From Bacteroidales bacterium (lineage in GTDB: Bacteria > Bacteroidota > Bacteroidia > Bacteroidales > UBA3824), in NCBI GenBank assembly GCA_016286055.1, contig JAEERW010000002.1, positions 136,458 to 200,457 on the forward strand: a stretch of 64,000 bases of DNA, read 5' to 3'. The translations under genes and the position numbers were made by a program. Below are positions 25,597 to 62,965 of this stretch, one piece after another (the stretch's first letter is position 1; every line of letters begins with the position of its first letter). The notes beneath the pieces were generated by a model. That model saw only the letters and a list, made by a program, of their open reading frames with translations, was not told where the DNA came from and made no database searches.

Positions 25597-26040
25597 TTAT
25601 TTAGGAATTGCGCGAACTCTGTCGGGTCTTACAGCACGGATGTTTTGCAAAAGTCGGTAGTCTTTGAAATTGTTGGTTACAATAATGCTGCATTTTTGTT
25701 TTCGTGCCAACACATACTGCACATTATCTTCAATATCTGCCCCAGTTTCGATTAAAGCGCAATCAATATCTTTGTTTGTAAAGTCTATGATATTAAACCG
25801 ATGCTGCAAATTATGAACTATATTTATAATATCTTGATTAGTTTTTTTCTTTTGATAAAAAGATATTAATTGTGCTACACTAAGAGAGGATATATATAGG
25901 CGTTTGCCAATTAATGAACACAGATAGTGAAGACACTCAGAGTCTTTTTGAAATCGGGCATCGCCACTATATGCACCTATTAAGACATTGGTGTCGATAA
26001 AAATATGGTTGGGATTGAACGAATATGTGTTTTGCACCAT
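25597..26040 (-). CDS. PIN-domain protein (VapC-like toxin candidate)
   Basis: IFIDTNVLIGAY near the N-terminus and an acidic residue pattern further on. I chose ATG 26040, which lies 1 nt after the upstream gene's TGA (TGAtATG junction). Confidence 0.6.
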   Translation of the reverse strand: MVQNTYSFNPNHIFIDTNVLIGAYSGDARFQKDSECLHYLCSLIGKRLYISSLSVAQLISFYQKKKTNQDIINIVHNLQHRFNIIDFTNKDIDCALIETGADIEDNVQYVLARKQKCSIIVTNNFKDYRLLQNIRAVRPDRVRAIPK

Positions 26041-26041
26041 A

Positions 26042-26221
26042 TCAGAAAGCCAAATGAGGAAATTGTTTCTTTTCTTCATCGGTTAGCGTACTAACCAAAC
26101 CGGCAGTCCAAATACCCACCAATTCTTCAATTAACTTCTTGCGTGTAAGTCCGTTCTTTTTTAAAAGTAACTCCACTACGCCTTTCCGTTCTTTTTCTAT
26201 TTGTCTATCTAATTCGCTCAT
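26042..26221 (-). CDS. Small helical protein, candidate antitoxin of the PIN gene
   Basis: 59 aa starting from MSELDRQIEKERKG.. . It is tightly coupled to the PIN ORF. A TATTTTTG box lies at 26242-26249 just upstream. Confidence 0.4.
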   Translation of the reverse strand: MSELDRQIEKERKGVVELLLKKNGLTRKKLIEELVGIWTAGLVSTLTDEEKKQFPHLAF

Positions 26222-26293
26222 AATGATTACCAATTTTTTAGCAAAAATAAAAAAAATGCCATAATTGTGCAATAGTTACAACAATAAATCCAC

Positions 26294-33267: not shown

Positions 33268-33741
33268 TTATTCGTGATGGTAGGGTTCGTTGTTGATGAT
33301 GGTGAATGCGCGGTATAGCTGCTCCATAAAAATCAGGCGCACCATCTGATGCGAGAAAGTCATCTTAGAGAGCGAGATTTTCTCGTCGGATTTTTGATAT
33401 ACCTGATTGTCAAAACCATACGGACCGCCTATTATAAAGGTGATGTCCTTGTTTTGGAGCGAGATTTTTTTGGAAATGTACTGCGAAAACTCCATCGAGG
33501 TGAACTCCTTGCCGTGTTCGTCTAAGAGTATGCGCACCGACGACGTGTCGAGATACGGCATAAGCAACTCACTCTCTTTCTGTTTGATGGTGTCGAAGGG
33601 CATATTAGCGGTATTCTTCAAATCTTTAAGCACCACAAACTCAAAAGGGATATACTTTTTTATCCTTTTTTCGTATTCGGCGCAGGCATCCACAAGGTAT
33701 TTTTCTACCGTGCGGCCTACTACCACAAATCTTATTTTCAT
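33268..33741 (-). CDS. rlmH: 23S rRNA (pseudouridine1915-N3)-methyltransferase RlmH
   Basis: MKIRFVVVGRT..YEKRIKKY..IGGPYGF..LSLSKMTFSHQMVRLIFMEQLYRA. Start set at ATG 33741 (157 aa). Confidence 0.9.
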   Translation of the reverse strand: MKIRFVVVGRTVEKYLVDACAEYEKRIKKYIPFEFVVLKDLKNTANMPFDTIKQKESELLMPYLDTSSVRILLDEHGKEFTSMEFSQYISKKISLQNKDITFIIGGPYGFDNQVYQKSDEKISLSKMTFSHQMVRLIFMEQLYRAFTIINNEPYHHE

Positions 33742-34001
33742 TTTTTGTTGTTCCTTGTCTAATAAACTTGTCTTGTTTGCTGCGTTTGATGTGCAAATAT
33801 AACAAAAAATAAAATGCCAATTCAAAAAAAGGACAATTTTCCTATCATTCAAAAATTGTGATACCACTCTGCCTTATCAGCGCTAAAAAGTTCAAAAAAG
33901 AGATTGTCGTAACTACGAATTTGTGCAAACGACAAATGTGTAATCGCTAAAAAAAATATTAAGAGAATTATCTTTTTACCCATAAATAAATACCTACGTC
34001 G

Positions 34002-34454
34002 TTATAGTTTATCTTCATATGATGGATACATTTTCATATTTTGCATCGTAGGAGTAGGCGGATAAGGGATGGAGTATTCAAGCTTACCAAAATCTGCGCC
34101 AGTCATACTATATCGAAGCAAAATATTATAAGTTTCAAGTGTATATTTAAGACCATATTTACTAAGAGTGTCTTTATTTATAATAAAATATTGAATAGTA
34201 TCTTTTAATTTCTCACATTCATAATCCGATTCAAAGACAATAGCTGACTTGTCGTTTGGTATAGACTGCGCAGCTTGTTTTTCCTCAACAATTGCAATTG
34301 TGTCTGAATTGTAAAAAGCAAACACATAAATAGTATCTCCTGTATTATTAGATAATTGTACGATATAATCGCCTCCACATACAGAATTCCAATAGTCATT
34401 GCAAGATACCAAAAGCAACATGATTACACAAGAAATAGAGAATTTGAATTTCAT
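34002..34454 (-). CDS. Small lipoprotein, paralog C of a three-member family (candidate immunity protein)
   Basis: Lipobox LLLVSC. The C-terminus (LLRYSMTGADFGKLEYSIPYPPTPTMQNMKMYPSYEDKL) is shared with 35188-35670. Confidence 0.6.
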   Translation of the reverse strand: MKFKFSISCVIMLLLVSCNDYWNSVCGGDYIVQLSNNTGDTIYVFAFYNSDTIAIVEEKQAAQSIPNDKSAIVFESDYECEKLKDTIQYFIINKDTLSKYGLKYTLETYNILLRYSMTGADFGKLEYSIPYPPTPTMQNMKMYPSYEDKL

Positions 34455-34483
34455 ATTACTAAATAATATACAATGCGTATCAT

Positions 34484-35158
34484 TTATTTTACAGTATTAA
34501 TCATATTTTCGTTTTTGGGAATAATCTCATCTGTCTTTCGAAAATGCGGTGAATTATTCTTAATTCTATAAATATTGGGAACTGGCACATAATTAAGCTC
34601 AGACAATTGATGTTCAGAAAAATTGCGAAAGAAATCAGATATTTTGATAGATTTTTTATCAAAATAATAAAGAGTATTATTTTTAACATACAATAATCCT
34701 GGAATTAGATAATTCGAGAATGAACGGCAATACAAAATTGCATCAGGATTACAAGCTAATATACGTTTTAATATTTTTTTATTACATTCAAAATATCTTA
34801 TATCAGACAATCCCCAATCAAAACTTGCTATATACATTAATTTGCTTTTGTCATCAACATAAGCCATAGAGTAAACAATGCAACTGTCTACGACTATTCT
34901 GTTATAAATACTAACATCGTCCAAACTATCTTTTAAATTCACAAAAAGAATTGATATTAAAGGATTTGCATTGTATTTTGACCTGTCGAACCGCTCATTA
35001 TGAGTGATTATAGCAGATTCGTCAATCAACGAATCGATTGCCGGAATATAGGCTCGCTTTACTTCATCAGAATTAAATCTCAAAATAGTCTCCAATGATT
35101 GACCATAAACCGAGCAACCTAATAGTGTTAAAAGTATAGCTATCAAGATAGGTTTCAT
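34484..35158 (-). CDS. Secreted or lipoprotein of unknown function
   Basis: 224 aa with signal/lipobox LTLLGC. The ORF is AT-rich and I recognised no motif. Confidence 0.5.
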   Translation of the reverse strand: MKPILIAILLTLLGCSVYGQSLETILRFNSDEVKRAYIPAIDSLIDESAIITHNERFDRSKYNANPLISILFVNLKDSLDDVSIYNRIVVDSCIVYSMAYVDDKSKLMYIASFDWGLSDIRYFECNKKILKRILACNPDAILYCRSFSNYLIPGLLYVKNNTLYYFDKKSIKISDFFRNFSEHQLSELNYVPVPNIYRIKNNSPHFRKTDEIIPKNENMINTVK

Positions 35159-35187
35159 ATTATAATTGACATTGACATAAACAAGAC

Positions 35188-35670
35188 CTATTCCGTTTCC
35201 TTAATAATCTCCTCATACGGCGGATACATTTTCATATCCTTCATAGCAGCGGAAGGGGGATAGGGAACCGTGAATTGGAGATTAATAATATCATCACCAG
35301 ACAAATCATAACGAGTTAACACTTTATAGTTTTTACAAATGTCTAACCACGAGCAAATATAATAAATTTCTTCGTCCAAAATGAAAACTGAAAATGTGTC
35401 CGTTGAAGATATAGCGTTTGCTTTCTTTTGATTCCAATATTTAAAAATATAAGAGTTGCCAGGTTTTAATACCCTCGTAGACTTTTCATAGATAGAATAG
35501 TCTTCATTTATTATAGTGTCGTTCTCTCTGAGGTCAAAAAAAGAATAATCTTGGATTAAAATTATATTTTTATCAGACATATTTTTAATTGATGCATTAT
35601 TGGAATCAAAATATTCTTTTTTGCATCCCGAACATAATAATAGGACAAACAATACAATCAATAACTTCAT
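35188..35670 (-). CDS. Small lipoprotein, paralog B (candidate immunity protein)
   Basis: Lipobox LLLCSGC. The C-terminus is YICSWLDICKNYKVLTRYDLSGDDIINLQFTVPYPPSAAMKDMKMYPPYEE. Confidence 0.6.
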   Translation of the reverse strand: MKLLIVLFVLLLCSGCKKEYFDSNNASIKNMSDKNIILIQDYSFFDLRENDTIINEDYSIYEKSTRVLKPGNSYIFKYWNQKKANAISSTDTFSVFILDEEIYYICSWLDICKNYKVLTRYDLSGDDIINLQFTVPYPPSAAMKDMKMYPPYEEIIKETE

Positions 35671-35681
35671 AGCTTAATGTG

Positions 35682-36131
35682 TTAAAATTTTATTATACGC
35701 ATTTTATTCATTTCACTTGTGGGTGGAAACTCCACAACTAACGGATAGTTGTGGAGTTCCTTAAGTATGAGTATATCTTCTTTTGAAAGTACATATATAT
35801 ACAAAAACATTTGTTTATCAGTTATATCAGACCAAGAATAATTCAGACATGTTTTTTTATCAATTATGAATAATGCAATACTATCATTTTCCCATATTTG
35901 ATCTAATTCAATCAGGCTGTTTTTTGTCTCGTTAGGTTTCAATGTGCATCTAAAAGTATTCTCAGAGAAGATATAAGGCATTACAGTGTCTGCATAATGC
36001 AATTTGGTTATAATGTGCACGGTGTGTTCCGATGTATTTTTGAAATACAATGTTTCAGGTTCTTCGTCCATATATAAATGGCAACCCGAAAAAACAAGAA
36101 TCGATAAAAACAGAAAAATTTTAAAATCCAT
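35682..36131 (-). CDS. Small lipoprotein, divergent paralog A, overlapping the Rhs stop by 11 nt (candidate cognate immunity protein)
   Basis: I chose the start at ATG 36131 (MDFKIFLFLSILVFSGC). The C-terminus (LNYSWSDITDKQMFLYIYVLSKEDILILKELHNYPLVVEFPPTSEMNKMRIIKF) aligns with paralogs B and C. Confidence 0.55.
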   Translation of the reverse strand: MDFKIFLFLSILVFSGCHLYMDEEPETLYFKNTSEHTVHIITKLHYADTVMPYIFSENTFRCTLKPNETKNSLIELDQIWENDSIALFIIDKKTCLNYSWSDITDKQMFLYIYVLSKEDILILKELHNYPLVVEFPPTSEMNKMRIIKF

Positions 36132-39100
36132 AAGTCGGGTATGTTGAATAAATTGACCAATAATTGCCGAAATAATCTCGACTGTATGCACTTGCCTCTC
36201 GTTCAAACCAACGTTCACGATGTGATCCATATTTTGGATTTTTAGCATCTAACAAACTTGGAATTCCAATATTGAACAAATACGCAAAACCATAGTGCCT
36301 GCCTTGAATTGTATGACCATACTCGTGCATAAATAAACCGTCGTGAGATGATTTTAAATATGATTCGAAATCTGTTTTAACATAATCTTTAATATTTATG
36401 TTAATAAAATTTCCAATTGTAATGCCATCATTTTTATCGGAATACTCGTCAACACAAAATGTAGCACCATCATAATAGTCCACACGGTCAACTTTGCCGA
36501 TGATATTCCGTATATGTGAATACATATTTCCTAACCCAGTTTGAAGAGATTCCCATGAGTATCTTGAGTTCCAATGCCAGAAGTTTTTAGCTCGAAACAT
36601 ACCCTTATCAATTTGAAATGCATTGCAAATTTTTTTATCGTAGTTTTTCGATGGTATAGAAAGTGCAAACAATGTGCCTTGAAATGGCATAAGCCCTGAT
36701 GCCGTAATGGTAGTGAACAATCCTGTTGCAGCAGTAGCGGTAGCACAGACTGTAACGCAAAACGATACAGGGTCAAGTAGAAACGCGCCGAGAATCCATG
36801 GTTTCCATTTTTCCCCGCTCGGGTCGGTATACTTGAGCGGATTATTCAAGCAATAAGAGTAACGATTGAAGTTCTGAGAGTTCTCCCAATCCTGTACAAA
36901 TGGGTCAGGGGCGAGAAAACGACCAACAAGAGGGTCGTACATTCTGCCGCCCATATCAATAATATCGAACGACGGATAATGCTGATGCACACCGCAGTAG
37001 CCTCGGGTGAACGCGGTAGTGCCTGTGGTTATGGTGCGGTTGCCAAAGGCATCGTAAGATGCCTCAAATGTCGGAGTGGCTTCTTGGTACAAAGTGGTGA
37101 TGCTGCCGAGGTGGTCGGTGAAGACCGTCTCTAACTTCTTGCCACCCAAGGGGTCAATAACGTACACGCCTACTAAACCGTCTGGCGAGTTTATGTAATG
37201 TGTTTTTTGATATATGCCGTAGCCGCCAAGTTCTTCGTAATTAGGAAGAAAGTACTGCGTAATCTCCACACCGAGTACGTTCCGTACCGATTTACGGCGG
37301 ATGTGGTCGGCGTCGTATTTGAACGAAATGCTTGTTTCGGATTCGTCGCTGTACTGAACAGTAATATACTTGGTTTTGTTAAAAGGTGTATAATCAATCT
37401 CTTGCAGAGGATTGATTATCAAAGTGTCGGTGTTGTCTACCGACTCCAAGGCGTGCGGACGTTTGCGGAAATACTCATAATTTCCCAAGCCAGTTTTAAA
37501 CAAGATGTTTCCGTTTTCTGAATAGTCAATATCGGTAACATCATGTCCATTGGTAATTTTTATCAGACGGTCGGCTGGGTCGTATTCGAATGATTCGGGT
37601 TCGGGAAACATCCCGCTCCGGCTCATCAGGTTGCCAGTCTTGGTGTCAAATTTATATGTCATTGTTTTCAACATCGCATCTTCGTACATCATTGTTGTGG
37701 AGACTGGGAAGCCGTATTTGTCGAACGATTGTGTTTTAATGTATTTTCCGTTGATTTCGGCAGAGCGTTCAAAGAGGCTCGAAGATGTGAGTTTCCACAC
37801 GGACATGGCATCCAACTGTATTTCGGTAAGATTGCCTAAATCGTCGTATGTGTAATATTCCGTTGTGCCATCGGGGAACGATTTTGATTCTAAAAGTCCA
37901 TCCTTGTTGTACGCAAAATGGTAGACATATTCGCGTGCTCCGATAGTGTAAGTCTCAGATTTTACGCGGTTTAGATTGTCATATTCGTATTTGGTGGCGA
38001 TATCTCCAAATTGTTTCTTTGTAAGTTTTCCATAGTCATCGTATATATATAAGGTGTTCTCGTCGCCGCTGACACTTTCTGTCAATTGACCGTTTTGATA
38101 AACATTTTCGGTGATGTTGCCTTCCGCGTCGGTCTGTTTTAAAATGTTGCCCCAAACATCGTATTCATATTTAGATACACCTGCGTCAGGGTCGGACAAT
38201 AGGATACGGTTGCCAACTTCGTCGTACTCCAACCTATATTCTGCGCCGGCGGCGTTGATTGCCACAGGCTTGGAGTCAGAATTGTAAGTGTATGCAATTG
38301 TTGCGATGCCGTCGTCGATTGAAAGCAAGTTACCGAATACGTCGTATGTCTTCAAGGTCTTCCTGCCGTCGGTTTCGGTTGTCACGGTGTTTTTGGTGTA
38401 GGTGTATTTTGTAACCGCGCCGTTTGTTCCTGTATGCTCAATGATACGGTTCTGATTGTCGTACACATAACTTTCGTTAAATTCGGTGTCGCCGTAGAGC
38501 GTTTTAGTTTTTATTATGTTTGAAAACTTGTCGTAAGTGTTATAAACCTTTATTTCTACACCGCCTTCACCAACGGTTTCGGTCAGGGTCTTACGTCCGA
38601 GTATGTCGTACCATTGTTTCTGCCACGGAGCGGCAGTTTGCTGAGAAAGAATGAAATAAAACTGTTCTTTGCTTTCGCCCCATCCCTTTTCGGTGGTTGT
38701 GATTGTGCCGTCGGGATATTGTGTTTTTATCAGATTACCCCAATTGTCGTATTTGTATGTGGTTATAAGCGGATTGTTTTGATTTGATATGTCAGTTTCG
38801 GTGGTTAGTCTGCCTAAATCATTGTAGCCGTATTTGATTACGCGATTTTGATTGTTGTCGGTTTTAGTTACGAGTTTTTGTTTTTCGTAGGAGCAATCGG
38901 TTGTAAATTTTTCCGCATTGTCGCCGTAAATATCTGTGTGTATGACGTTTCCATATTCATCGTATGTATATTCTGTTGATACTTGCTTTAATGTGCCGTA
39001 ATTGTCAATTTGTTTTGTTAATGTGCCGGTGATGGCATCATATTCAAAGTGTTTTTGAGTTACAAAACCTTTTGGGTCGTCAGGTGCTTTTTGGATATAG

Positions 39101-41844
39101 GTTGAAAGATGCGGCTGCCACATTCCGCCAGCCATCACGTAGTCGCCATAATATTGCAGTTTGTAATATCCATCGGGATAATGGGTTTCTGTATTTTCTA
39201 AATATCCGTGTTCGGTGTTGTATGTGTTTTGAGTAACTACTACATCACCGTATATGTCTGTATTTTTGATTTTTGACGGATATGTAAAAAAGTTTTTGCC
39301 ACCCAAATCGGTAATGCTATATTCGGTTTCGGTTGTGTTAACAAGCGTATCGTGTCTAATTGTTTGAGTGATTTTTACAGGAGTATAATAATCTGTATTC
39401 CACGAGTTTACCTCAGTTGTAGATATTTCGCCAGTATATTGGTTTTCATAAACTATTTTGTTGAAGCCGAGAAGACCTTTACCTTGTACATTAGCGGTAA
39501 GGTTATAATATTTATAATTTTTGATAATATTGTCAGTAATTCCGTTGATTTCTTCCGAAGAACTTACCACTGCCAACGGCGCAGCAACATCAATCAACGG
39601 GTAGGTCTGATTTTTACCTTTTTGGTAGAAGTTTTTGTTGGTGAGAAAAGTATAGTTGAACGTCGTGGCAGAGAAACAATCTTGTATCAAATTTATTTTA
39701 TTACAGAATGCTTTGTAATTAGAATTGTAATATATATGCCATTTTGGATTATCCTCATTATTCCAATTAAAAAGACAATTGTTACCATAGTTTATAAGTT
39801 CGCGAATGCCGTCACCATTGAAATCGCCAACGGCAAAGTTTGAGTTATAGGCATCGCTTTCGTTGTGAGATGTAGTTTTCTTCCATTCTGTTAGTTTTTT
39901 GCCGTCGGATTTCAACCATAAGGTTTGAGTATAGTCATATACACCCCACGGACTTGACCACATATCATCTTCTTTGTGATACTGTCCACGGGTGGATACA
40001 ATGTCGGATTTTCCGTCCAAGTCGAAATCCAAAATCTGCAAGTCAAACCTGCCGTTGTCGTGACCAGTAAAACCTCGGTCGTAAAAATCTGTTGTAATGG
40101 CGATTGTCTGTTCGAAACCGCCATGTCCTTTATTCATTAAAAAATACCAGTTCTTGTCGTCAGTTTCGGTGTAGACAAAATCTAGCAACCCATCACCGTT
40201 GAAGTCGCCTGAACGGATGATGTAGTATCCATTTATGATGCCTTCAATGTCGGTTTTATTGCTATCGGGGAAATAACCGTCGCCGTCGTTGTATAAAATA
40301 GTGTAGCCCTTTTTGCTAAATATTATGACATCAACAGTGTTGTCGCCGTTGAAGTCGGCGGCAAACATATCCTTAGGCTCTTGCGAAAGATAAAACTCAA
40401 AATCGGAATCGCCGTCTGCCGAAACTAATTTTGCGTTATACCGACCATACTCGTTCTGCTTTTTTTCTACGTAAAAAATTTGCGTTTTGCCATTGCCCTT
40501 GAAATCAGCAAAAGCAAGCGCAGGCATTTCGCTGCAATGCAAGTTGTACCAACGGAAATCAAATATTTGTGCATTTTCGTAGAACCGAAAACCAATTTGT
40601 TCCCAATGACCTTTGGCAACATTTAAACAAGGTATAATTAATTCGTTAGAGCCATTCCCGTTGAAGTCGCCAAAAACGAAACTATTACCTTTTTTAATAT
40701 CGTCCAAAGGTGTTTCAGATTCAATAAAATCTTCTCCCCTGTATGCAAAAACAAATCTGTCGTCTTTTATTAACGTTTCATAAAAAATCACCTTGTTGAT
40801 AAAGTATGTTATATTACCTACCTTTTGTGGAGAAACTAAGATTATGTCGTCCAAACCGTCGGCGGTAATGTCCCCTGTTATTACCATCTGTTCGTAAAAG
40901 TCAACCGGATAGGATATGTCGCTTGCTGAAAAATTAAAAATATCAGGTTCAATATCATCTAAGACATTATGGATGCCTATCCAATTAAATTTGACAGGAG
41001 GTAAGGATTCGCCTTCCGTGTTGGTCTTAGTGATTGCCGACAACCGCGAATAGCCGTCGTTGTCAACGTATGTTAAGTGATATGTATAAATATCTTTGTT
41101 GTAACACTTTACTAATATATCTTTTATACGCTCTTTTAATTCTTGTGGGTGTCCGAAAAAATTACCTTTTACAATATCAGAACGCTGTTCATATTCAAAT
41201 TTGATTTCGCACGTATAACTAAAATCATTGTTAGTATAAACGATACTTTTGGGCATAGTTACAAAAACAGACTGATGGTAGTCGTATAATATAAAGTTGC
41301 CAAAGTTATCTTCAACCTTAGCCAAGTTCCATACCGCAGGTTTTTGCCAAATAATGTCGATATTAGACGACATACCATAACCGTAATAAAAGATTTTTCC
41401 ATCCTTTTTCATTTTGAAATACCTTTCATCAGGGTAGTAGGTGATTTCGGCTGTAAGGTCTCCTTCCAATGTATATTTGTTAGTAGGAACTTTGATAAGC
41501 CGCTTGCCATCCAATAAAAAATCTTCGCCGTGGTTAAAATCAATGCCGGAAGCCATTCCGTCAAAATAAATAGTCTTATTAGTTCGTGTTATTGAAGAAA
41601 AACCGTCTAACATAAAACCAACACCCAAAATGCCGTTTCCACTAATACTGTTATAATTGAGTGATACAGATGGAAACAATCCGTTAGTGCCTTCGGGAAT
41701 CTCAATAGGCAGCGAAAAAACAGCATTGCCCAATTCGCCAACGGTTACCGTGCTGGACAACTTACCCACAGAATATTTGTTATTCTGAGCTATTGCAGAG
41801 ATACTTATCAGTGCGATTAATATGCTTAACAAAGCCTTCCTCAT
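36121..41844 (-). CDS. Secreted SpvB-like / FG-GAP / RHS-repeat protein with Rhs core and a C-terminal hydrophobic + HExxH (zincin-like) toxin module
   Basis: 1907 aa with signal peptide (..SISAIAQ). The SpvB-like block is FSLPIEIPEGTNGLFPSVSLNYNSISGNGILGVGF. Seven FG-GAP/VCBS-like motifs are present (e.g. GDFNGDGLLDFV, LDFDLDGKSDIV, GDFNGDGIRELI), along with many YD repeats (YTYDEYGNVI, YKYDNWGNLI, YEYDVWGNIL...). The Rhs core end is GRMYDPLVGRFLAPDPF..NRYSYCLNNPLKYTDPSGE at nt 36811-36825. A 229-aa C-terminal module follows, with HEYGH at nt 36313-36327. Confidence 0.85.
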   Translation of the reverse strand: MRKALLSILIALISISAIAQNNKYSVGKLSSTVTVGELGNAVFSLPIEIPEGTNGLFPSVSLNYNSISGNGILGVGFMLDGFSSITRTNKTIYFDGMASGIDFNHGEDFLLDGKRLIKVPTNKYTLEGDLTAEITYYPDERYFKMKKDGKIFYYGYGMSSNIDIIWQKPAVWNLAKVEDNFGNFILYDYHQSVFVTMPKSIVYTNNDFSYTCEIKFEYEQRSDIVKGNFFGHPQELKERIKDILVKCYNKDIYTYHLTYVDNDGYSRLSAITKTNTEGESLPPVKFNWIGIHNVLDDIEPDIFNFSASDISYPVDFYEQMVITGDITADGLDDIILVSPQKVGNITYFINKVIFYETLIKDDRFVFAYRGEDFIESETPLDDIKKGNSFVFGDFNGNGSNELIIPCLNVAKGHWEQIGFRFYENAQIFDFRWYNLHCSEMPALAFADFKGNGKTQIFYVEKKQNEYGRYNAKLVSADGDSDFEFYLSQEPKDMFAADFNGDNTVDVIIFSKKGYTILYNDGDGYFPDSNKTDIEGIINGYYIIRSGDFNGDGLLDFVYTETDDKNWYFLMNKGHGGFEQTIAITTDFYDRGFTGHDNGRFDLQILDFDLDGKSDIVSTRGQYHKEDDMWSSPWGVYDYTQTLWLKSDGKKLTEWKKTTSHNESDAYNSNFAVGDFNGDGIRELINYGNNCLFNWNNEDNPKWHIYYNSNYKAFCNKINLIQDCFSATTFNYTFLTNKNFYQKGKNQTYPLIDVAAPLAVVSSSEEINGITDNIIKNYKYYNLTANVQGKGLLGFNKIVYENQYTGEISTTEVNSWNTDYYTPVKITQTIRHDTLVNTTETEYSITDLGGKNFFTYPSKIKNTDIYGDVVVTQNTYNTEHGYLENTETHYPDGYYKLQYYGDYVMAGGMWQPHLSTYIQKAPDDPKGFVTQKHFEYDAITGTLTKQIDNYGTLKQVSTEYTYDEYGNVIHTDIYGDNAEKFTTDCSYEKQKLVTKTDNNQNRVIKYGYNDLGRLTTETDISNQNNPLITTYKYDNWGNLIKTQYPDGTITTTEKGWGESKEQFYFILSQQTAAPWQKQWYDILGRKTLTETVGEGGVEIKVYNTYDKFSNIIKTKTLYGDTEFNESYVYDNQNRIIEHTGTNGAVTKYTYTKNTVTTETDGRKTLKTYDVFGNLLSIDDGIATIAYTYNSDSKPVAINAAGAEYRLEYDEVGNRILLSDPDAGVSKYEYDVWGNILKQTDAEGNITENVYQNGQLTESVSGDENTLYIYDDYGKLTKKQFGDIATKYEYDNLNRVKSETYTIGAREYVYHFAYNKDGLLESKSFPDGTTEYYTYDDLGNLTEIQLDAMSVWKLTSSSLFERSAEINGKYIKTQSFDKYGFPVSTTMMYEDAMLKTMTYKFDTKTGNLMSRSGMFPEPESFEYDPADRLIKITNGHDVTDIDYSENGNILFKTGLGNYEYFRKRPHALESVDNTDTLIINPLQEIDYTPFNKTKYITVQYSDESETSISFKYDADHIRRKSVRNVLGVEITQYFLPNYEELGGYGIYQKTHYINSPDGLVGVYVIDPLGGKKLETVFTDHLGSITTLYQEATPTFEASYDAFGNRTITTGTTAFTRGYCGVHQHYPSFDIIDMGGRMYDPLVGRFLAPDPFVQDWENSQNFNRYSYCLNNPLKYTDPSGEKWKPWILGAFLLDPVSFCVTVCATATAATGLFTTITASGLMPFQGTLFALSIPSKNYDKKICNAFQIDKGMFRAKNFWHWNSRYSWESLQTGLGNMYSHIRNIIGKVDRVDYYDGATFCVDEYSDKNDGITIGNFININIKDYVKTDFESYLKSSHDGLFMHEYGHTIQGRHYGFAYLFNIGIPSLLDAKNPKYGSHRERWFEREASAYSRDYFGNYWSIYSTYPTYGF

Positions 41845-42236
41845 TCTTTCAAAATTTTATAAGTTTTGTCAGAAATGTTTAACAAATATATTCCGCTTGG
41901 CAGATTTGTCAAATCTATATTATTACTCTCCATCAAATCGTTTATTGTCAAGACAATACGTCCGAACAAATCAATAATTACAGCCTTATGAACTTCTTGT
42001 TGATAAAGTTCGATTTGCAAAAAATCTTTAACCGGATTTGGGTAAATTTTTACAAACTCATCCTGAATTACAGACTCTTGAATGTCTGCAATAGAAGTTT
42101 GAAGTTCTGGCTTGGGCAGGTCAACAAAACGTAACACCCTTGCCCCGTTGTCGTTATAATCGAATGTAACTTTTTGGGCATAAGATATTTTGCACAAAAA
42201 CAACACTACGAGTATTAGTGTAGCAGTATATTTCAT
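41841..42236 (-). CDS. Mini-protein: signal peptide + one YD-repeat-like strand + T9SS type A C-terminal sorting domain
   Basis: Start set at MKYTATLILVVLFLCKISYAQ. The mature N-terminus KVTFDYNDNGARVLRF resembles the YD repeats of the downstream Rhs gene. The CTD pattern is KIYPNPVKDFLQIEL..IIDLFGRIV..LPSGIYLLNISDK. The stop overlaps the Rhs ATG (ATGA). Confidence 0.65.
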   Translation of the reverse strand: MKYTATLILVVLFLCKISYAQKVTFDYNDNGARVLRFVDLPKPELQTSIADIQESVIQDEFVKIYPNPVKDFLQIELYQQEVHKAVIIDLFGRIVLTINDLMESNNIDLTNLPSGIYLLNISDKTYKILKE

Positions 42237-42252
42237 AGTTAGTAGTTTTTTG

Positions 42253-42260
42253 CAAAAATA
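42253..42260 (-). promoter_or_regulatory. -7 promoter box TATTTTTG upstream of the mini-protein/Rhs operon
   Basis: The reverse complement of caaaaata matches TAnnTTTG. It lies 17 nt upstream of ATG 42236. Confidence 0.45.
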
Positions 42261-42470: not shown

Positions 42471-45380
42471 ATGATAATTGCCAAGTTGGAAAATTCAGAT
42501 AACATAGCAGCAGCAGAATCGCTCGACCTCGAAAATATCCACGTGTACGGCGCACGTGTACACAATCTTAAAAATATCGACGTTACCATTCCGCGCAACA
42601 AACTTACTGTGGTAACAGGACTTAGCGGCAGCGGCAAATCGTCGCTGGCATTCGACACCATTTTTGCCGAGGGTCAAAGACGTTACATCGAAACTTTCGA
42701 TGCCTACGCACGTCAGTTTCTCGGTGGTTTGGAGCGTCCCGACGTGGATAAAATCACTGGTCTAAGCCCCGTTATCAGCATCGAACAGAAATCCACCAAC
42801 AAAAATCCGCGTAGCACAGTTGGCACTATTACAGAGATTTACGACTTTATGCGTCTCTGGTTTGCGCGTGCGGGCGAGGCTTATAGTTACCTCAGCGGCA
42901 AAAAAATGGTGAAATACACTTCTGATCAGATACTTGCGCTCATTACCGAACGATATGGAGGCAAACGTGTAATTGTTCTCGCCCCCGTGGTGCAGGGTCG
43001 CAAGGGTCATTACCGCGAACTGTTTGAGCAAATACGCCGAAAAGGTTACGTACAGGTGCGTGTAGACGGTGTGGTAAAAGATATTATCGTAAATATGAAA
43101 ACCGACCGCTACAAAACTCACAACATAGAGATAGTAATCGATAAGTTGGTTGTGCCCAAAGACGGCGCAGCGGGCGGAGGAATGGAGCGTGTAAAATCGT
43201 CGATTAACACCGCTATGCAGTTTGGCAAGGGCATAATTATGCTTATGGATGCCGACACTGGCGAAACAAGATATTACAGCAGGCTTTTGATGTGTCCCGA
43301 AACAGGACTTTCGTATGCTGAGCCTGCTCCCAACAATTTTTCGTTCAACTCGCCCACAGGATGCTGTCCACGGTGCAAGGGTTTGGGTTTTGTAGATATT
43401 ATCGACGTACAAAAGGTGGTTCCCGACCGCACTCTCAGCATCAAGAAAGGCGCAATTGTACCATTGGGCAAATATCGCGACAATTTTGTGTTCCGTCAGT
43501 TGGAGGCAATTGCCGAGCGCGATGGTTTTTCGCTCGACACACCCGTGCAAGACCTTCCGCCCGAAGCGTTAGACACTGCGCTCTACGGTTCGGCAGAGCC
43601 TGTAAAGATGGAGTGGCTTAGGATGTACGGCTCAGGTTCGTCCACCTACGACGGCATTATTAAATACCTCGAAAACGCTGTTGACGACGACACCAACGAA
43701 GACATTGCTCAAAAATACTCCACTCAGGCAGTTTGTCCCGAATGTGGCGGAATGCGTCTCAACCGCGAGGCTCTTAGTTACCGAATTGCCGACAAAAACA
43801 TTGCGGAACTCTCCACTATGGACATTGCCGAATTGTCGCAATTTTTGCAAAACGTTGATTCTCAACTATCTCCCAAACAGAAAGAGATTTCATCCGAAAT
43901 ACTCAAAGAGATAAAAAACCGTGTGGGCTTTATGCTCGATGTGGGTTTGGATTATCTCAGTCTTTTCCGTCCAGCACAGACACTTTCGGGCGGTGAGGCT
44001 CAGCGCATTAGACTTGCCACGCAGATAGGTTCAAAACTCGTAAACGTGCTTTATATTCTCGACGAGCCAAGCATCGGTCTTCATCAGCGCGACAACGACA
44101 AGTTAATATCTTCGCTAAAAAAACTCCGCGACGAGGGCAACTCCATAATCGTGGTGGAGCACGACAAGGATATGATTAAAAATGCCGACTTTGTTATCGA
44201 CATTGGTCCTGGCGCAGGTCGTCTCGGTGGTTTTGTTACTGCCGAATGTGAACCCGCTATGCTCAAAGACAAAGATACGCTCACAGCCAAATATATTTCG
44301 GGCGAATTAGATATTGAGGTTCCAGAAAAGCACCGCGAAGGCAACGGCAAGTTTATCGAACTCAAAGGCGCAACTGGCAACAACCTCAAAAACGTTGACC
44401 TTAAAATTCCGCTCGGCAAACTTGTGCTTGTAACAGGCGTTTCGGGTAGCGGCAAGAGTACGCTCATCAACGAAACCCTCCGTCCGATACTCACAAAGCA
44501 TTTTTACCGCTCTCTGCAAGAGCCATTGCCCTACAAGAGTATTTCGGGACTGGAAAATATCGACAAGGTGATAGAGGTAAACCAAGAACCCATTGGACGC
44601 ACACCGCGCTCAAACCCCTGCACCTACACCAACATTTTCAGCGACATCCGTCAACTTTACGCTGAACTTCCACAATCTAAAATTATGGGATTCAAGCCAG
44701 GAAGGTTTTCGTTTAACGTTAAGGGCGGACGCTGCGAAGATTGCCAAGGAGCAGGCGTTAAGACTGTGGAGATGAATTTCTTGCCCGATGTCTACGTAAA
44801 ATGCGATGCTTGCAACGGTCGCCGCTACAATCGTGAAACTCTTGAAGTTAAGTTTAAGGGCAAATCAATTTCCGATGTTTTGGATATGACCATCAACCGT
44901 GCTTGCGAGTTTTTTGAGAATGTGCCCAAGATATTAAAAAAACTCCGCGCACTGCAAGATGTTGGTATGGGCTACGTAACTCTCGGTCAGGCTGCCACTA
45001 CCCTATCAGGCGGCGAGGCTCAGCGTATAAAACTTGCTGCCGAACTATCCAAAAACGACACTGGCAAAACACTTTATATATTAGACGAACCCACCACAGG
45101 TCTGCATTTAGAAGACATCCGCATACTTATGAACGTGCTAAACAAACTCGTGGACAAGGGCAACACCGTGGTAATCATCGAACACAATTTAGACGTTATC
45201 AAAACCGCCGACTATATCATCGACCTTGGTCCTGAGGGCGGACGTCGCGGTGGCGAAATCATTGTGCAAGGTACTCCCGAAGAGATTGTAAAACAAGGAG
45301 TTGGATTTACTGCGCAATACCTTGCCCCAGAATTGAAGGCTGCGGCAGAATACCGCACACGTCAGTTGTCAAAACAATAA
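42471..45380 (+). CDS. uvrA: Excinuclease ABC subunit A
   Basis: 969 aa with two ABC modules (GLSGSGKSSLAF, GVSGSGKSTLI, and LSGGEAQRI twice) and zinc-finger CxxC pairs. Confidence 0.95.
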   Translation: MIIAKLENSDNIAAAESLDLENIHVYGARVHNLKNIDVTIPRNKLTVVTGLSGSGKSSLAFDTIFAEGQRRYIETFDAYARQFLGGLERPDVDKITGLSPVISIEQKSTNKNPRSTVGTITEIYDFMRLWFARAGEAYSYLSGKKMVKYTSDQILALITERYGGKRVIVLAPVVQGRKGHYRELFEQIRRKGYVQVRVDGVVKDIIVNMKTDRYKTHNIEIVIDKLVVPKDGAAGGGMERVKSSINTAMQFGKGIIMLMDADTGETRYYSRLLMCPETGLSYAEPAPNNFSFNSPTGCCPRCKGLGFVDIIDVQKVVPDRTLSIKKGAIVPLGKYRDNFVFRQLEAIAERDGFSLDTPVQDLPPEALDTALYGSAEPVKMEWLRMYGSGSSTYDGIIKYLENAVDDDTNEDIAQKYSTQAVCPECGGMRLNREALSYRIADKNIAELSTMDIAELSQFLQNVDSQLSPKQKEISSEILKEIKNRVGFMLDVGLDYLSLFRPAQTLSGGEAQRIRLATQIGSKLVNVLYILDEPSIGLHQRDNDKLISSLKKLRDEGNSIIVVEHDKDMIKNADFVIDIGPGAGRLGGFVTAECEPAMLKDKDTLTAKYISGELDIEVPEKHREGNGKFIELKGATGNNLKNVDLKIPLGKLVLVTGVSGSGKSTLINETLRPILTKHFYRSLQEPLPYKSISGLENIDKVIEVNQEPIGRTPRSNPCTYTNIFSDIRQLYAELPQSKIMGFKPGRFSFNVKGGRCEDCQGAGVKTVEMNFLPDVYVKCDACNGRRYNRETLEVKFKGKSISDVLDMTINRACEFFENVPKILKKLRALQDVGMGYVTLGQAATTLSGGEAQRIKLAAELSKNDTGKTLYILDEPTTGLHLEDIRILMNVLNKLVDKGNTVVIIEHNLDVIKTADYIIDLGPEGGRRGGEIIVQGTPEEIVKQGVGFTAQYLAPELKAAAEYRTRQLSKQ

Positions 45381-46917: not shown

Positions 46918-47000
46918 ACCTAAATTATTTGCGTTAATAACGGTGCTAAGTTACAAAATTTCGTTTTAATACGTTTCTATTCGCTTTATTTTTTGTTATA

Positions 47001-60097: not shown

Positions 60098-62965
60098 TCA
60101 TTTTGTTTTCTTGGTAAAATATCCGGGGTTTGATTCGCCGCCGTCGATATGGGCGTAGTCAGAGTCGGTATGGTCTTCGTCGAATTTTGTTCCTTTTCCG
60201 CCGACAAGGTTGGGGCAATTTCTAAACATATCTTCGGAATCTTCTATGTTGCTTGTATTCCAACTGTCACCCACATAGATTGTTTTAAGGTTTTTACAAT
60301 TCCTGAACATGCCCCTAATATCAGTAACCGTACCTGTATTGAAACCGCTGACATCAATGGCAGTAAGGGTTTCACAATCCAAAAACATTTCATACATATC
60401 AGTAACATTTCCTGTCTTGAACCCGCTTACATCAAGGCTTGTCAGGTTTTTACAACCACAAAACATAAAACTCACATCAGTAACACTATCTGTATTGAAA
60501 CCGCTGACATCAAGGCTTGTAAGGCTTTCACAACCCTCAAACATACCACGCATATTAGTAACATTTCCTGTATTGAAACCTCTGACATCAAGGCTTGTCA
60601 GGTTTTTACAACCCCTAAACATACCACTCATATAATTAACATTTTCTGTATTGAAACCGCTGACATCAAGGCTTGTAAGGCTTTTACAACCCGAAAACAT
60701 ACCATTAATTTTATAAACATTATCTGTATTGAATCCGCTGACATCAAGGTTTGTAAGGCTTTCACAACCCTGAAACATAAAACTCATATCAATAACATTA
60801 TCTGTTTTGAACCCACTGACATCAAGGCTTGTCAGATTTTTACAACCCACAAACATATCATGCATATCAGTAACATTCTCATTATTAAATCCGCTGACAT
60901 CAAGGCTTGTAAGGTTTATACAATCATAAAACATCCAAGTCATACTAGTAACCTTATCAGTATTGAAACCGCTGGCATCAAGGCTTGTCAGGTTGGCACA
61001 GCCCCAAAACATTCCATTCATATTAGTAACATTTCCTGTATTGAAACCGCTGACATCAAGGCTTGTAAGGCTTTCACAACCCTGAAACATTTCCATCATA
61101 TTAGTAACATTCTCAGTTTTGAATCCGCTGACATCAAGGCTTGTCAAATTCCTACAATCCTCAAACATACTACGCATATCAGTAACCTTCTCAGTATTGA
61201 AACCGCTGACATCAAGGCTTGTAAGGCTGTAACAATAAGCAAACATACCATTCATATCAGTAACATTTTCAGTATTGAACCCGCTGACATCAAGGCTTGT
61301 AAGGCTGTTACAATAATAAAACATACCATTCATATCAGTAACATTTTCAGTATTGAACCCGCTGACATCAAGGCTTGTAAGGTTTTCACAACCCTCAAAC
61401 ATCCCATGCATATCAGTAACATTTTTGGTATTGAATCCGCTGACATCAAGGCTCGTAAGGTTTTCACAATCCTCAAACATCCCCCACATATTAGTAACCT
61501 CCGACGTGTTCAAGTTTTCTTTTATGCCTATGATGGAAGTAAGGTTTTCACAATCTTCAAACCAACGCCTACAACTTTTAGGTCTGTATTCTTTAAACGA
61601 ATTGTCAAATACAACTGTTCTGATTTTGTTTAATACAGGATCCCATTCTTTACATTCAAAACCGAATCTGGTTTTTACCAAATTTTCCACATGATACGCC
61701 CCTTTCGGCTTTTTATCATTATAATAAAAAGTCAGAGTGCTGTCTTTGAATACGGCGTATGCCTCGGGTTGAGATGTCTTGGTAAAATATCCGGGGTTGG
61801 ATTCGCCGCCGTCGATGTGGGCGTACTTTACATCAGTGTGGTCGTCGTCGTATTTTGTTCCTTTTCCGCCGATAAGGTTGGGGCTATTGTTAAACATATA
61901 TTCGGAATCTGTTACATTGCTGATATTCCAACCGTTACCGACATAGATTGTCGTAAGGTTTCTACAACCATAAAACATACCCTTCATATCAGTAACATTT
62001 TCAGTATTGAAACCGCTGACATCAAGGCTTGTAAGGCTGTAACAATAAGCAAACATAAAACTCATATCAATAACATTATCTGTTTTGAACCCACTGACAT
62101 CAAGGCTTGTCAGATTATAACATTCATAAAACATACACGCCACATCAGTAACACTATCTGTGTTGAAACTGCTCACATCAAGGCTTGTAAGGCTTTCACA
62201 ACCCTGAAACATACCACGCATATTAGTAACCTTATCAGTATTGAAACCGCTGACATCAAGGCTTGTAAGGTTTTTACAACCCAAAAACATATCCCACATA
62301 TCAGTAACATTTTCAGTATTGAAACCGCTGACATCAAGGCTTGTCAGGTTTTTACAATCATAAAACATAGAACTCATATGAGTAACATTTCCTGTATTGA
62401 AACCGCTGACATCAAGGCTTGTTAGTTTTGAACAACCCAAAAACATAGAAGTCATATTAGTAACCTTATCAGTACTGAAACCGCTGACATCAAGGCTTGT
62501 CAGATTATAACATCCCCAAAACATCCCACGCATATTAGTAACCTTATCAGTATTGAATCCGCTGACATCAAGGCTTGTAAGGTTTTCACAATCCGAAAAC
62601 ATCCCCCACATATTAGTAACCTCCGACGTGTTCAAGTTTTCTTTTATGCCTATGATGGAAGTAAGATTTTCACAACCTGCAAACCAACGACTACAACTTT
62701 TAGGTCTGTATTTTTTAAACGAATTGTCAAATACAGCGGTTTTTATTTGGCGGCATACAGGTTCCCATTCTTTAACGTAAGAATCACCACCGTGATCCAA
62801 TTGTATCGTTACCATTTTTTCCACATCATAAGCCCTTTTCGGCTTTTTATCATTATAATAAAAAGTCAGAGTGCTGTTTTTGAATACGGCGTATGCCACT
62901 TTTTGCGAAAAGGCATCGATACATAGGAATAGTAAAAGAATCAACAGGAGGCTTGTTTTTTTCAT
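60098..62965 (-). CDS. BspA-type leucine-rich-repeat surface protein (26-residue repeat / DUF285-like), made of two complete modules fused in frame
   Basis: 955 aa with a signal peptide. There are tens of repeats of the type NLTSLDVSGFNT.NVT.M..MF.GC. . The module end GGKGTKYDDDHTDVKYAHIDGGESNPGYFTK occurs internally and a near-identical end GGKGTKFDEDHTDSDYAHIDGGESNPGYFTK at the C-terminus. Confidence 0.85.
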   Translation of the reverse strand: MKKTSLLLILLLFLCIDAFSQKVAYAVFKNSTLTFYYNDKKPKRAYDVEKMVTIQLDHGGDSYVKEWEPVCRQIKTAVFDNSFKKYRPKSCSRWFAGCENLTSIIGIKENLNTSEVTNMWGMFSDCENLTSLDVSGFNTDKVTNMRGMFWGCYNLTSLDVSGFSTDKVTNMTSMFLGCSKLTSLDVSGFNTGNVTHMSSMFYDCKNLTSLDVSGFNTENVTDMWDMFLGCKNLTSLDVSGFNTDKVTNMRGMFQGCESLTSLDVSSFNTDSVTDVACMFYECYNLTSLDVSGFKTDNVIDMSFMFAYCYSLTSLDVSGFNTENVTDMKGMFYGCRNLTTIYVGNGWNISNVTDSEYMFNNSPNLIGGKGTKYDDDHTDVKYAHIDGGESNPGYFTKTSQPEAYAVFKDSTLTFYYNDKKPKGAYHVENLVKTRFGFECKEWDPVLNKIRTVVFDNSFKEYRPKSCRRWFEDCENLTSIIGIKENLNTSEVTNMWGMFEDCENLTSLDVSGFNTKNVTDMHGMFEGCENLTSLDVSGFNTENVTDMNGMFYYCNSLTSLDVSGFNTENVTDMNGMFAYCYSLTSLDVSGFNTEKVTDMRSMFEDCRNLTSLDVSGFKTENVTNMMEMFQGCESLTSLDVSGFNTGNVTNMNGMFWGCANLTSLDASGFNTDKVTSMTWMFYDCINLTSLDVSGFNNENVTDMHDMFVGCKNLTSLDVSGFKTDNVIDMSFMFQGCESLTNLDVSGFNTDNVYKINGMFSGCKSLTSLDVSGFNTENVNYMSGMFRGCKNLTSLDVRGFNTGNVTNMRGMFEGCESLTSLDVSGFNTDSVTDVSFMFCGCKNLTSLDVSGFKTGNVTDMYEMFLDCETLTAIDVSGFNTGTVTDIRGMFRNCKNLKTIYVGDSWNTSNIEDSEDMFRNCPNLVGGKGTKFDEDHTDSDYAHIDGGESNPGYFTKKTK

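Follow-up and report, generated by a model that had tools for sequence, protein, structure and literature searches.

The locus described here lies in a 64,000-nucleotide stretch of the genome of a Bacteroidales bacterium (contig JAEERW010000002.1, positions 136,458 to 200,457 of the forward strand; hereafter the window), and comprises a gene for an Rhs polymorphic toxin, a mini-gene directly upstream of it and four small genes downstream. These six tightly packed genes are all on the minus strand, as are all features of the operon given below, and fill the interval between rlmH (33268–33744) and uvrA (42471–45380, plus strand). The stop codon of the mini-gene overlaps the Rhs start by 4 nt (ATGA), there is an 11-nt overlap between the Rhs stop and the first gene downstream, and the remaining genes follow with gaps of 11, 29 and 29 nt. 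A first-pass annotation, made from the sequence alone, had described a tight minus-strand operon between rlmH and uvrA, with a translationally coupled mini-gene upstream and small genes spaced by 11–29 nt downstream. The list of open reading frames (ORFs) and the Pfam and NCBIfam matches confirmed the operon and its flanks, and the ATGA overlap and the intergenic gaps agree with the rest of that description. The term “inserted”, which was also used there, is only partly apt: more distant relatives do carry the mini-gene/Rhs pair at other chromosomal sites, but a related strain has the same interval occupied. The identical locus was also found on contigs of several metagenome assemblies, and one relative is a Bacteroidales metagenome-assembled genome (MAG) from goat abomasum, found in a scan of a genome collection with a three-sequence N-terminal alignment that returned two loci.

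The Rhs gene (36121–41844), identified from the ORF and its domain matches, encodes a protein of 1907 residues. The N-terminus, MRKALLSILIALISISAIA|QNN, reads as a cleavable Sec signal peptide (residues 1–19; 41788–41844) with cleavage predicted from sequence features at AIA|Q, and a similar signal peptide starts nearly all Rhs homologues. It is followed by an SpvB/TcB-like region (residues 20–319; 40888–41787) that is conserved across the family, in which residues 38–89 matched the Pfam SpvB profile with 32.4 bits, above the cut-off, while covering only profile positions 4–54. Residues ≈320–700 (39745–40887) form an FG-GAP/VCBS β-propeller region, with FG-GAP_3 and FG-GAP matches above cut-off, GDFNGDG-type motifs at residues 324, 392, 496, 546 and 673, and a DNA repeat family (D2). 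The YD-repeat shell (residues ≈701–1596; 37057–39744) was delineated by RHS_repeat and YD_repeat_2x matches, by TEN_YD-shell in the precomputed Pfam calls and by DNA repeat families D1 and D3; the scores of 117.8 bits for RHS_repeat (PF05593) and 87 bits for TIGR01643 reflect multiple YD repeats. The Rhs-associated core (residues 1597–1678; 36811–37056) ends in NNPLKYTDPSGE, which is also a recombination boundary (see below) and presumably the site of autoproteolysis; NCBIfam Rhs_assc_core (TIGR03696) matched residues 1597–1677 with 55.3 bits against a cut-off of 32.5. TcdB_toxin_midN had no Pfam match in the window protein, though many homologues do match it. Neither Pfam nor NCBIfam detected a C-terminal sorting domain (CTD) on the Rhs polypeptide, the C-terminus of which is the toxin.

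The first-pass annotation had reported a 1907-residue minus-strand ORF with a cleavable signal peptide, an SpvB-like N-terminus, FG-GAP/VCBS motifs, YD repeats and an Rhs core end. The ORF and signal peptide are borne out by the sequence and the domains by Pfam or NCBIfam matches that all exceed their cut-offs. Its reading of the protein as a fused TcB/TcC-like cocoon carrying a variable C-terminal module is supported by the domains, by the tails of the homologues and by a break in DNA similarity at the core boundary. A search with the full-length protein returned at least 280 relatives; the 120 that were listed are mostly ≈2000 residues long and include proteins from Prevotella, Dyadobacter, Runella, Lacihabitans, Carboxylicivirga, Vicingaceae and Tenuifilaceae. 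A word-indexed protein search with residues 1–330 returned two fragments only. Some gut-metagenome clusters of Sec-dependent SpvB/FG-GAP/Rhs proteins exceed a thousand members. In three assemblies of one relative (L004, L005 and L006), the Rhs gene is broken into an 88-residue SpvB fragment and an 1859-residue remainder (≈10393–16261 in L004), and this break probably reflects a genuine frameshift or pseudogene in the population concerned.

The mini-gene (41841–42236) encodes 131 residues, organized as a signal peptide, a single YD repeat, a connecting linker and a T9SS (type IX secretion system) CTD of type A, and we propose that its product is a trans-acting T9SS adaptor. The CTD (residues 62–131; 41844–42053) scored 52.8 bits with Pfam Por_Secre_tail (PF18962; cut-off 27) and 46.8 bits with TIGR04183 (cut-off 23). 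The YD/RHS-repeat (residues 21–38, QKVTFDYNDNGARVLRFV; 42123–42176) occupies the mature N-terminus and is predicted from family conservation and from an AlphaFold2 model to form a β-hairpin, which we refer to as the handle. In this model, calculated from a 56-sequence alignment, a signal helix is followed by the two strands of the hairpin (residues 23–27 and 33–38), with a predicted local confidence (pLDDT) of ≈87, and by a β-sandwich at residues 62–130 (pLDDT 93–98). The intervening linker (residues 39–61; 42054–42122) has no secondary structure and a pLDDT of 54–67, and is predicted to be disordered; its length and sequence vary across the family. The low predicted template modelling score of the whole model (pTM 0.55) is as expected for two independent modules on a tether. 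The top fold matches in the PDB were T9SS CTDs, namely those of mirolase (8qb1, E = 5e-4), PorZ and PorU, together with the CTDs of NucA, FspA and RemA from T9SS translocon complexes (8glk_D, 8glj_D and 8gl6_D), which gave template modelling (TM) scores of 0.70–0.75.

The most conserved part of the mini-protein is the mature N-terminus rather than the CTD: the pattern A|QKVTFDY..G.R..R is invariant in the close family. In an exhaustive profile search of 1.84 billion representative sequences, 261 mini-protein-like proteins were found at E < 1e-10. Among the best 148 of these, 127 are 110–210 residues long, and in 109 of the 127 the signal peptide is followed at once by the motif [YF]x[YF]DxxGNR. 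A stretch of 80 residues would contain this motif by chance with a probability of about 1e-5. The window protein fits the architecture of this family (≈130–160 residues, with signal peptide, YD repeat, linker and type A CTD), with a degenerate motif. In two 180-residue homologues (P0005 and P0006), the linker and the start of the CTD are internally duplicated. Searches of Pfam, NCBIfam and the literature gave no function for stand-alone CTD mini-proteins.

The pairing of the mini-gene with the Rhs gene recurs across genomes. Homologues of the mini-gene, with 63% and 49% identity, were found at two other chromosomal sites, each overlapping the start of an SpvB/FG-GAP/Rhs gene by 4 nt; in all, relatives with this 4-nt overlap occupy three chromosomal contexts other than that of the window. 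In Prevotella and Carboxylicivirga, where the Rhs proteins are 27–30% identical to that of the window, a gene for 144–155 residues lies 15–25 nt upstream of Rhs and encodes a signal peptide, the motif YTYDAAGNR or YTYGASGNR, and a type A CTD; in a Vicingaceae MAG, a gene with YSYDASGNR and a CTD lies 480 nt downstream of Rhs. A metagenome scan with a three-sequence Prevotella-type N-terminal alignment as the query returned 56 loci, ≈52 of them with informative upstream sequence. At ≈48 of these ≈52 loci, a 132–160-residue ORF with YD motif and CTD ends between −21 and +34 nt from the Rhs start, and the 43 mini-proteins recovered by script fell into ten clusters at 50% identity. The related strain L071 has a 131-residue CTD mini-gene with the same ATGA overlap, situated within a block of DNA that is 90.6% identical to the window. 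The adaptor is therefore part of the constant delivery module and not of the exchanged cassette.

Variants of this arrangement were also observed. In Runella (L013, 12391–13221) and Lacihabitans (L074, 10324–11124), a gene that overlaps or follows the Rhs stop encodes a signal peptide and a YD-type motif (LTYDANGNR; EYDLNGNV), joined to an Ig-like, Cys-rich region in which no CTD is recognised, and genes for Laminin_G_3 proteins come next. From these fused sequences, the YD handle resembles a module for Rhs docking that can be moved between proteins. In Dyadobacter luticola (L012, 13861–14418), a 185-residue protein encoded downstream of Rhs matched the type B sorting domain profile TIGR04131 with 23.7 bits, below the cut-off of 35, and contains a degenerate VTFEGNGTR motif; judging by its sequence, this protein may be the type B counterpart of the adaptor. 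One high-GC locus that does not resemble Bacteroidota (L075) lacks both the YD motif and the CTD upstream of its homologous SpvB/FG-GAP/Rhs gene. A 117-residue lipoprotein-like ORF (3651–4004) overlaps the Rhs start at this locus, and may represent a different kind of partner outside the phylum.

The C-terminus of the Rhs protein is polymorphic. In 105 Rhs homologues, a common core end (NNPLxYxDPxG) is followed by unrelated tails of 190–350 residues. The Rhs protein of L071 is 81% identical to that of the window and occupies the same uvrA–rlmH interval. The 90.6% identity of the DNA extends from position 47000 of the window to exactly 36811, the last codon of the core; similarity is then essentially lost over the toxin tail and the downstream genes, and returns at rlmH. 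Judged from the sequences, a break at the last core codon is the classic mark of cassette exchange in polymorphic toxins, and the GC content falls from ≈0.45 to 0.29–0.31 across the cassette, from the toxin tail through the downstream genes. The first-pass annotation had suggested comparing the rlmH–uvrA interval of related strains for such variability, and the L071 interval indeed varies in the C-terminal tail and the downstream genes. Within the first ≈120 residues after the core, 85 of the 105 tails (Rhs homologues P0019–P0138) start with small-xxx-small, glycine-zipper-like segments, and 38 tails contain a hydrophobic stretch of transmembrane grade. These segments may, from their sequence character, constitute a shared membrane-entry leader that precedes otherwise unrelated toxins.

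The variable toxin of the window protein (residues 1679–1907; 36124–36810) consists of a hydrophobic leader of ≈55 residues, rich in small residues, and a metallopeptidase-like HExxH...E domain. The putative zinc-binding catalytic motif is HEYGH (residues 1840–1844; 36313–36327), in which H, E, G and H are invariant in nine homologues. The full set of invariant residues among these nine (C-terminal-domain numbering) is H162, E163, G165, H166, Q169, G174, Y177, S185, E203 and A206, and forms the HExxH...E signature of the gluzincin type. Eight of the homologous tails are carried on Rhs scaffolds with 26–32% overall identity to that of the window, and one on the scaffold with 81% identity. The structure model of the toxin has a confident core (pLDDT 85–90) after a low-confidence, helical hydrophobic leader. 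Neither the toxin tail nor the four small downstream proteins gave any meaningful match in Pfam or NCBIfam up to E = 10. A profile search of PDB sequences yielded a motif-level match to the active site of the M9 collagenase ColH (E = 0.04), and the toxin model matched uncharacterised phage proteins with E values of 6e-6 to 5e-4, including a crAss-like phage protein annotated as “Vgr2b binding protein” (E = 4.7e-4). On the basis of this signature, the toxin is a putative, unclassified HExxH...E metallopeptidase.

The first-pass annotation had counted four small secreted or lipoprotein genes downstream of Rhs. Three of these are paralogues of a single lipoprotein family that ends in PYPPxxxMxxMKMYP, but the fourth, a secreted or lipoprotein-like protein of 224 residues (34484–35158) with no family match, is unrelated to them. 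The gene that overlaps the Rhs stop encodes a 149-residue lipoprotein (lipobox VFSGC; 35682–36131), the probable cognate immunity protein. Next comes a 160-residue paralogue with the same C-terminal motif (35188–35670), probably an additional or orphan immunity protein, and, beyond the unrelated gene, a 150-residue lipoprotein of the same family (34002–34454), which is probably an orphan immunity protein against the toxin variant of L071. The latter is 53% identical to the product of the first gene downstream of Rhs in L071, as would be expected of an orphan immunity gene. The same lipoprotein family follows Rhs in L004 and L071, two loci with the toxin type of the window, and the loci L007 and L014, which carry other tails, have unrelated downstream proteins. 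(The L007 tail looks like a PD-(D/E)xK nuclease.) The proteins downstream of Rhs in L014 and the first one in L007 have no signal peptide, and the second in L007 has a hydrophobic N-terminal segment only. In a Prevotella locus with the same toxin type, the next gene encodes a lipoprotein of similar size with marginal similarity only. Since the lipoproteins follow the toxin and co-vary with its type, they are probably immunity proteins.

A precedent for such a system exists: VgrG2b is an HExxH toxin that was shown experimentally to act in the periplasm and is countered by a periplasm-facing immunity protein (PA0261), of which the form in Enterobacteriaceae is a lipoprotein (PMC6899460). Because of this precedent, we infer by analogy that the toxin of the window would act in the envelope and be neutralised by lipoprotein immunity. 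According to their Pfam annotation, some other Rhs homologues end in tails of known antibacterial kinds, Tae4 and lysozyme among them.

Other genes in the window bear on the T9SS. Outside the operon, at 7536–9023 (plus strand), lies a gene for a T9SS outer membrane protein of the PorP/SprF family fused to an OmpA-like domain (TIGR03519, 126.1 bits against a cut-off of 90.55). Immediately upstream (6703–7524, plus strand) is a cargo gene with PKD and CHU_C (type B CTD) domains, which is the usual pairing of type B cargo with PorP/SprF. This pair of genes is evidence that the organism uses a T9SS. Next to them, a stand-alone type A CTD protein of 165 residues (9032–9529, plus strand), consisting of a signal peptide, ≈65 residues and a Por_Secre_tail domain (33.8 bits), is encoded 12 nt upstream of a gene for a 584-residue fibre-like protein with a signal peptide (9542–11296, plus strand). 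The C-terminus of the fibre is a self-cleaving Peptidase_S74 intramolecular chaperone. By analogy, the S74 fibre would be a second cargo that is unable to carry a C-terminal CTD, and hence an independent analogue of the Rhs pair, which suggests that trans-CTD adaptors may serve any cargo with an occupied C-terminus.

The first-pass annotation had concluded that the operon had no visible delivery machinery, and that export of the Rhs protein was unexplained for that reason. The first statement is wrong and the second unsupported: the mini-gene encodes a T9SS type A sorting domain together with a YD repeat and is conserved beside the Rhs family across several Bacteroidota orders, and the window also contains PorP/SprF and other T9SS cargo. 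Its observation that the window lacks PAAR, VgrG, Hcp, TcA-like and TpsB genes was correct for the scanned proteins, among which none of these families had a match. (Scanned were the ORFs of at least 180 residues, except four overlapped ones, and six of the nine isolated ORFs of 70–180 residues; the EamA, rhomboid and FBP aldolase ORFs were covered by precomputed Pfam calls only.) PAAR, VgrG, Hcp and TcA likewise had no match in the regions flanking Rhs at 12 distinct loci for which genes had been called (near-identical assemblies were treated as one locus). Delivery by a type VI secretion system (T6SS), by TcA or by TpsB (two-partner secretion/contact-dependent inhibition) was considered and rejected, as no supporting gene, including a TpsB transporter or a TPS domain, was found among the scanned proteins and the signal peptides count against it.

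The reading that we favour, with somewhat more confidence than doubt, is that of an antibacterial Rhs toxin that is exported by Sec and then handed to the T9SS by the trans-acting YD-hairpin/CTD adaptor. T9SS substrates need a folded C-terminal domain, and folded and very large proteins do pass through the system (PMC9251779). Because the C-terminus of the Rhs protein is a toxin that is presumably cleaved off and enclosed in the shell, we infer that the sorting domain is supplied in trans. In the periplasm, the YD hairpin of the adaptor would dock on the β-shell of the Rhs protein by strand augmentation. This would be comparable to the joining of TcB and TcC, which form one shell from two chains and provide a precedent for the addition of strands in trans. 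The CTD would then bind PorV/SprA, and the complex would cross the outer membrane. After PorU-type processing and removal of the CTD, the short YD peptide could be anchored on the surface, holding the cocoon in place for contact-dependent attack. Upon contact with a competitor, the metallopeptidase toxin would reach the periplasm or envelope of the target cell, hydrophobic leader first, while sibling cells would be shielded by the periplasm-facing lipoproteins, one of them cognate and the others orphans against the variants of neighbours. A wider generalisation, which we put at somewhat less than an even chance, is that the T9SS exports or displays proteins without a CTD of their own by means of small, dedicated adaptors that carry the CTD in trans (a “split sorting signal”), and that in the Rhs case a single YD repeat is inserted into the shell as an extra hairpin.

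Several points weigh against this reading. The handle is degenerate in the clade of the window (FDYNDNGAR rather than YxYDxxGNR), and the pairing has exceptions: a type A CTD mini-gene is missing beside Rhs at three of the metagenome loci (L060, L062 and L065) and in two genomes of Cytophagales. Within the 64-kb window, none of the genes for the T9SS core (gldK/L/M/N, sprA, porV and porU) is visible. Binding of the hairpin to the shell is proposed from sequence and from models of single chains. The folded cocoon with its propeller may be too wide for the lumen of SprA. In the literature searched, every described T9SS substrate has its own CTD, and no precedent for trans-CTD or “piggyback” export was found. 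As to the toxin, Foldseek comparison of the model with the PDB gave no significant match, the best being M48-like peptidases (E ≈ 0.3), and its activity, its target compartment and the function of the immunity proteins are read from a motif, from co-variation and by analogy. The adaptor model also does not account for entry of the toxin into the target cell.

The same linkage and YD-handle data would also fit a scheme in which the mini-protein is an ordinary surface-attached T9SS cargo that tethers the cocoon through its hairpin, while the Rhs protein leaves the cell by another route, such as outer membrane vesicles or the lysis of some of the cells. For canonical Tc toxins, release takes place by lysis and not by a secretion system (PMC10847048), and SprA may have difficulty with a folded cocoon of this size. 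The handle in Runella and Lacihabitans, moreover, is attached to Ig-like modules and not to a CTD, suggesting that docking is the core function and export secondary. However, a surface hook would meet a periplasmic Rhs protein only if both cross the outer membrane, the operon contains no vesicle or lysis genes, and translational coupling and strict co-inheritance are better explained by assembly before export. We consider this scheme unlikely, but worth bearing in mind. It is distinctly improbable that the mini-protein acts only inside the producing cell, as a regulator or as a folding cap or chaperone for the nascent β-shell, with the CTD serving merely for disposal. A full, well-conserved sorting domain on a tether would be costly for disposal alone, and the same logic is found with an unrelated cargo in the window, the S74 fibre, although the exposed edge of a folding sheet could be capped by a single YD hairpin and the searches gave no function for stand-alone CTD mini-proteins.

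Two further explanations concern the partner and the target, and we give little credence to either. The toxin might be a Tc-like virulence factor directed at the animal host or at eukaryotic microbes, in which case the downstream lipoproteins would not be immunity proteins. The classical targets of SpvB/TcB relatives are eukaryotic, and protozoa and fungi abound in the ruminant gut community from which the DNA comes. Against this stand the lipoprotein family, which tracks the toxin type while the other tails (L007 and L014) have unrelated downstream genes, the orphan-immunity pattern in the window, and the homologues with antibacterial tails (Tae4, lysozyme). Slightly less credible still is a conventional partner elsewhere in the genome, either a T6SS(iii) of the Bacteroidota together with an adaptor or a translocator resembling TcA, which would make the mini-gene incidental. 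The SpvB/FG-GAP/Rhs architecture is that of TcB–TcC, the propeller of which docks on TcA, and the DNA inspected amounts to 64 kb of the genome. However, both the mini-protein and the Rhs protein have Sec signal peptides, which T6SS and Tc components are not known to possess; the absence of PAAR, VgrG, Hcp and TcA from the scanned window proteins and from the flanks of the 12 distinct loci points the same way, and the conservation and coupling of the mini-gene are too strong for an incidental gene.

Considered as a toxin/immunity cassette, the locus is ordinary. Its toxin belongs without question to the Rhs polymorphic toxins and is built like TcB/TcC. It shares with other Rhs/YD toxins, such as the T6SS Rhs effectors (e.g., RhsA of P. 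protegens) and WapA of Bacillus, a YD-repeat shell, a core ending in DPxG, an exchangeable C-terminal toxin, probable immunity and orphan immunity genes, and a recombination break at the core boundary. Unlike these, it has a Sec signal and an SpvB/FG-GAP N-terminus in place of a PAAR/prePAAR domain or a cell-wall anchor, and, in contrast to the T6SS effectors, its conserved partner is a T9SS CTD mini-protein, with no VgrG or Hcp nearby. The absence of PAAR and VgrG matches in the protein and among the scanned window proteins indicates that it is not a T6SS Rhs effector. The Tc BC subcomplexes (Photorhabdus TcdB2–TccC3 and Yersinia YenBC) have the same FG-GAP β-propeller, RHS shell and encapsulated C-terminal toxin, and an SpvB N-terminal domain that the window protein matches over part of the profile. 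In the window protein, however, B and C are fused into one chain that starts with a signal peptide, no TcA is found within the 64-kb window or the flanks of related loci, and the probable immunity genes point to bacterial targets. The signal peptide and the lack of TcA thus argue that it is not a Tc toxin. Release also differs, as Tc toxins are freed by lysis (PMC10847048) and not via Sec and the T9SS.

The closest published observation comes from Apibacter, in which SpvB/TcdB-type rhs genes adjoin genes for T9SS type A sorting domains, and an association with the T9SS rather than the T6SS was suggested (Steele and Moran 2021, PMC8125069). Both the pairing of the genes and the conclusion drawn from it agree with those for the window locus. 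That report is limited to adjacency, however, and does not describe the mini-protein architecture, the YD handle, the breadth of the family or a mechanism; Apibacter are Flavobacteriales bee symbionts, whereas the window locus is from ruminant-gut Bacteroidales. The TANFOR toxins are Bacteroidetes polymorphic toxins with Sec signals and neighbourhoods enriched in T9SS CTD proteins, and were hypothesised, without experiment, to be T9SS substrates that lack a CTD of their own (Jana, Salomon and Bosis 2020, PMC7073777). Their delivery domain is TANFOR and not SpvB/Rhs, and their neighbours are large SprB/PKD/Fn3 CTD proteins, not a dedicated YD-repeat mini-adaptor. VgrG2b/PA0261 (Wood et al. 2019, PMC6899460) resembles the window pair in combining a periplasmic HExxH zinc-metallopeptidase with a periplasm-facing immunity protein. 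VgrG2b, however, rides a T6SS spike, has no detectable sequence relationship to the window toxin and was not among its PDB fold matches. The “hitchhiker” proteins of the twin-arginine translocation (Tat) pathway (HybO/HybC and PaoABC), which lack a signal and are exported with a signal-bearing partner (PMC4273604), provide a mechanistic analogy only, since the membrane, the machinery and the signal all differ. The rhs/T9SS-CTD adjacency was thus already known from Apibacter; neither that report nor the TANFOR study describes the YD handle, the breadth of the family or an adaptor mechanism. No description of the YD-handle architecture, and no experimental work on it, was found in the literature searched.

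The remaining features of the locus and its surroundings can be described briefly. A candidate −7 promoter box, TATTTTTG (42253–42260), was read from the sequence 17 nt upstream of the mini-gene ATG; it matches the Bacteroidetes −7 consensus TAnnTTTG and may drive the operon. A sigma-70 promoter and terminator scan was uninformative, the sigma-70 model not being applicable to this phylum. No direct or inverted repeats were found at the island boundaries, the repeats seen being the YD and FG-GAP coding repeats. Elsewhere in the window, a PIN-domain protein (25597–26079, minus strand) and a small overlapping upstream ORF (26042–26272, minus strand), both present also in L071, look like a VapBC-type toxin–antitoxin pair. 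Near the end of the window, two genes (60098–62965 and 62985–63986, both minus strand) encode large BspA-like surface proteins with PARCEL/DUF285 leucine-rich repeats, the larger of which gave no CTD match.

Bacteroidota very commonly encode Sec-dependent SpvB/FG-GAP/Rhs proteins, and the adaptor suggests a testable route for their export. The mini-gene offers a concrete starting point, being a 130-residue gene with a nine-residue motif that can be deleted or mutated, and the adaptor model predicts a specific structure, in which a hairpin is added to the shell. The combination of YD motif and CTD in a mini-gene is also a bioinformatic marker by which such toxins can be found. If the trans-CTD principle is true, it would change the prediction of T9SS substrates, which now relies on a CTD in the cargo itself, and could be used to send engineered cargo through the T9SS. 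The split sorting signal would then be a general solution for occupied or self-cleaved C-termini, in Rhs toxins as well as in fibres with S74 chaperones. A role of the T9SS in antagonism between bacteria has been posed as an open hypothesis (PMC7073777, PMC8125069). If the wider, split-signal reading is correct, the T9SS would be a widespread means of delivering interbacterial weapons in the Bacteroidota, including the Prevotella-type lineages of the human gut.

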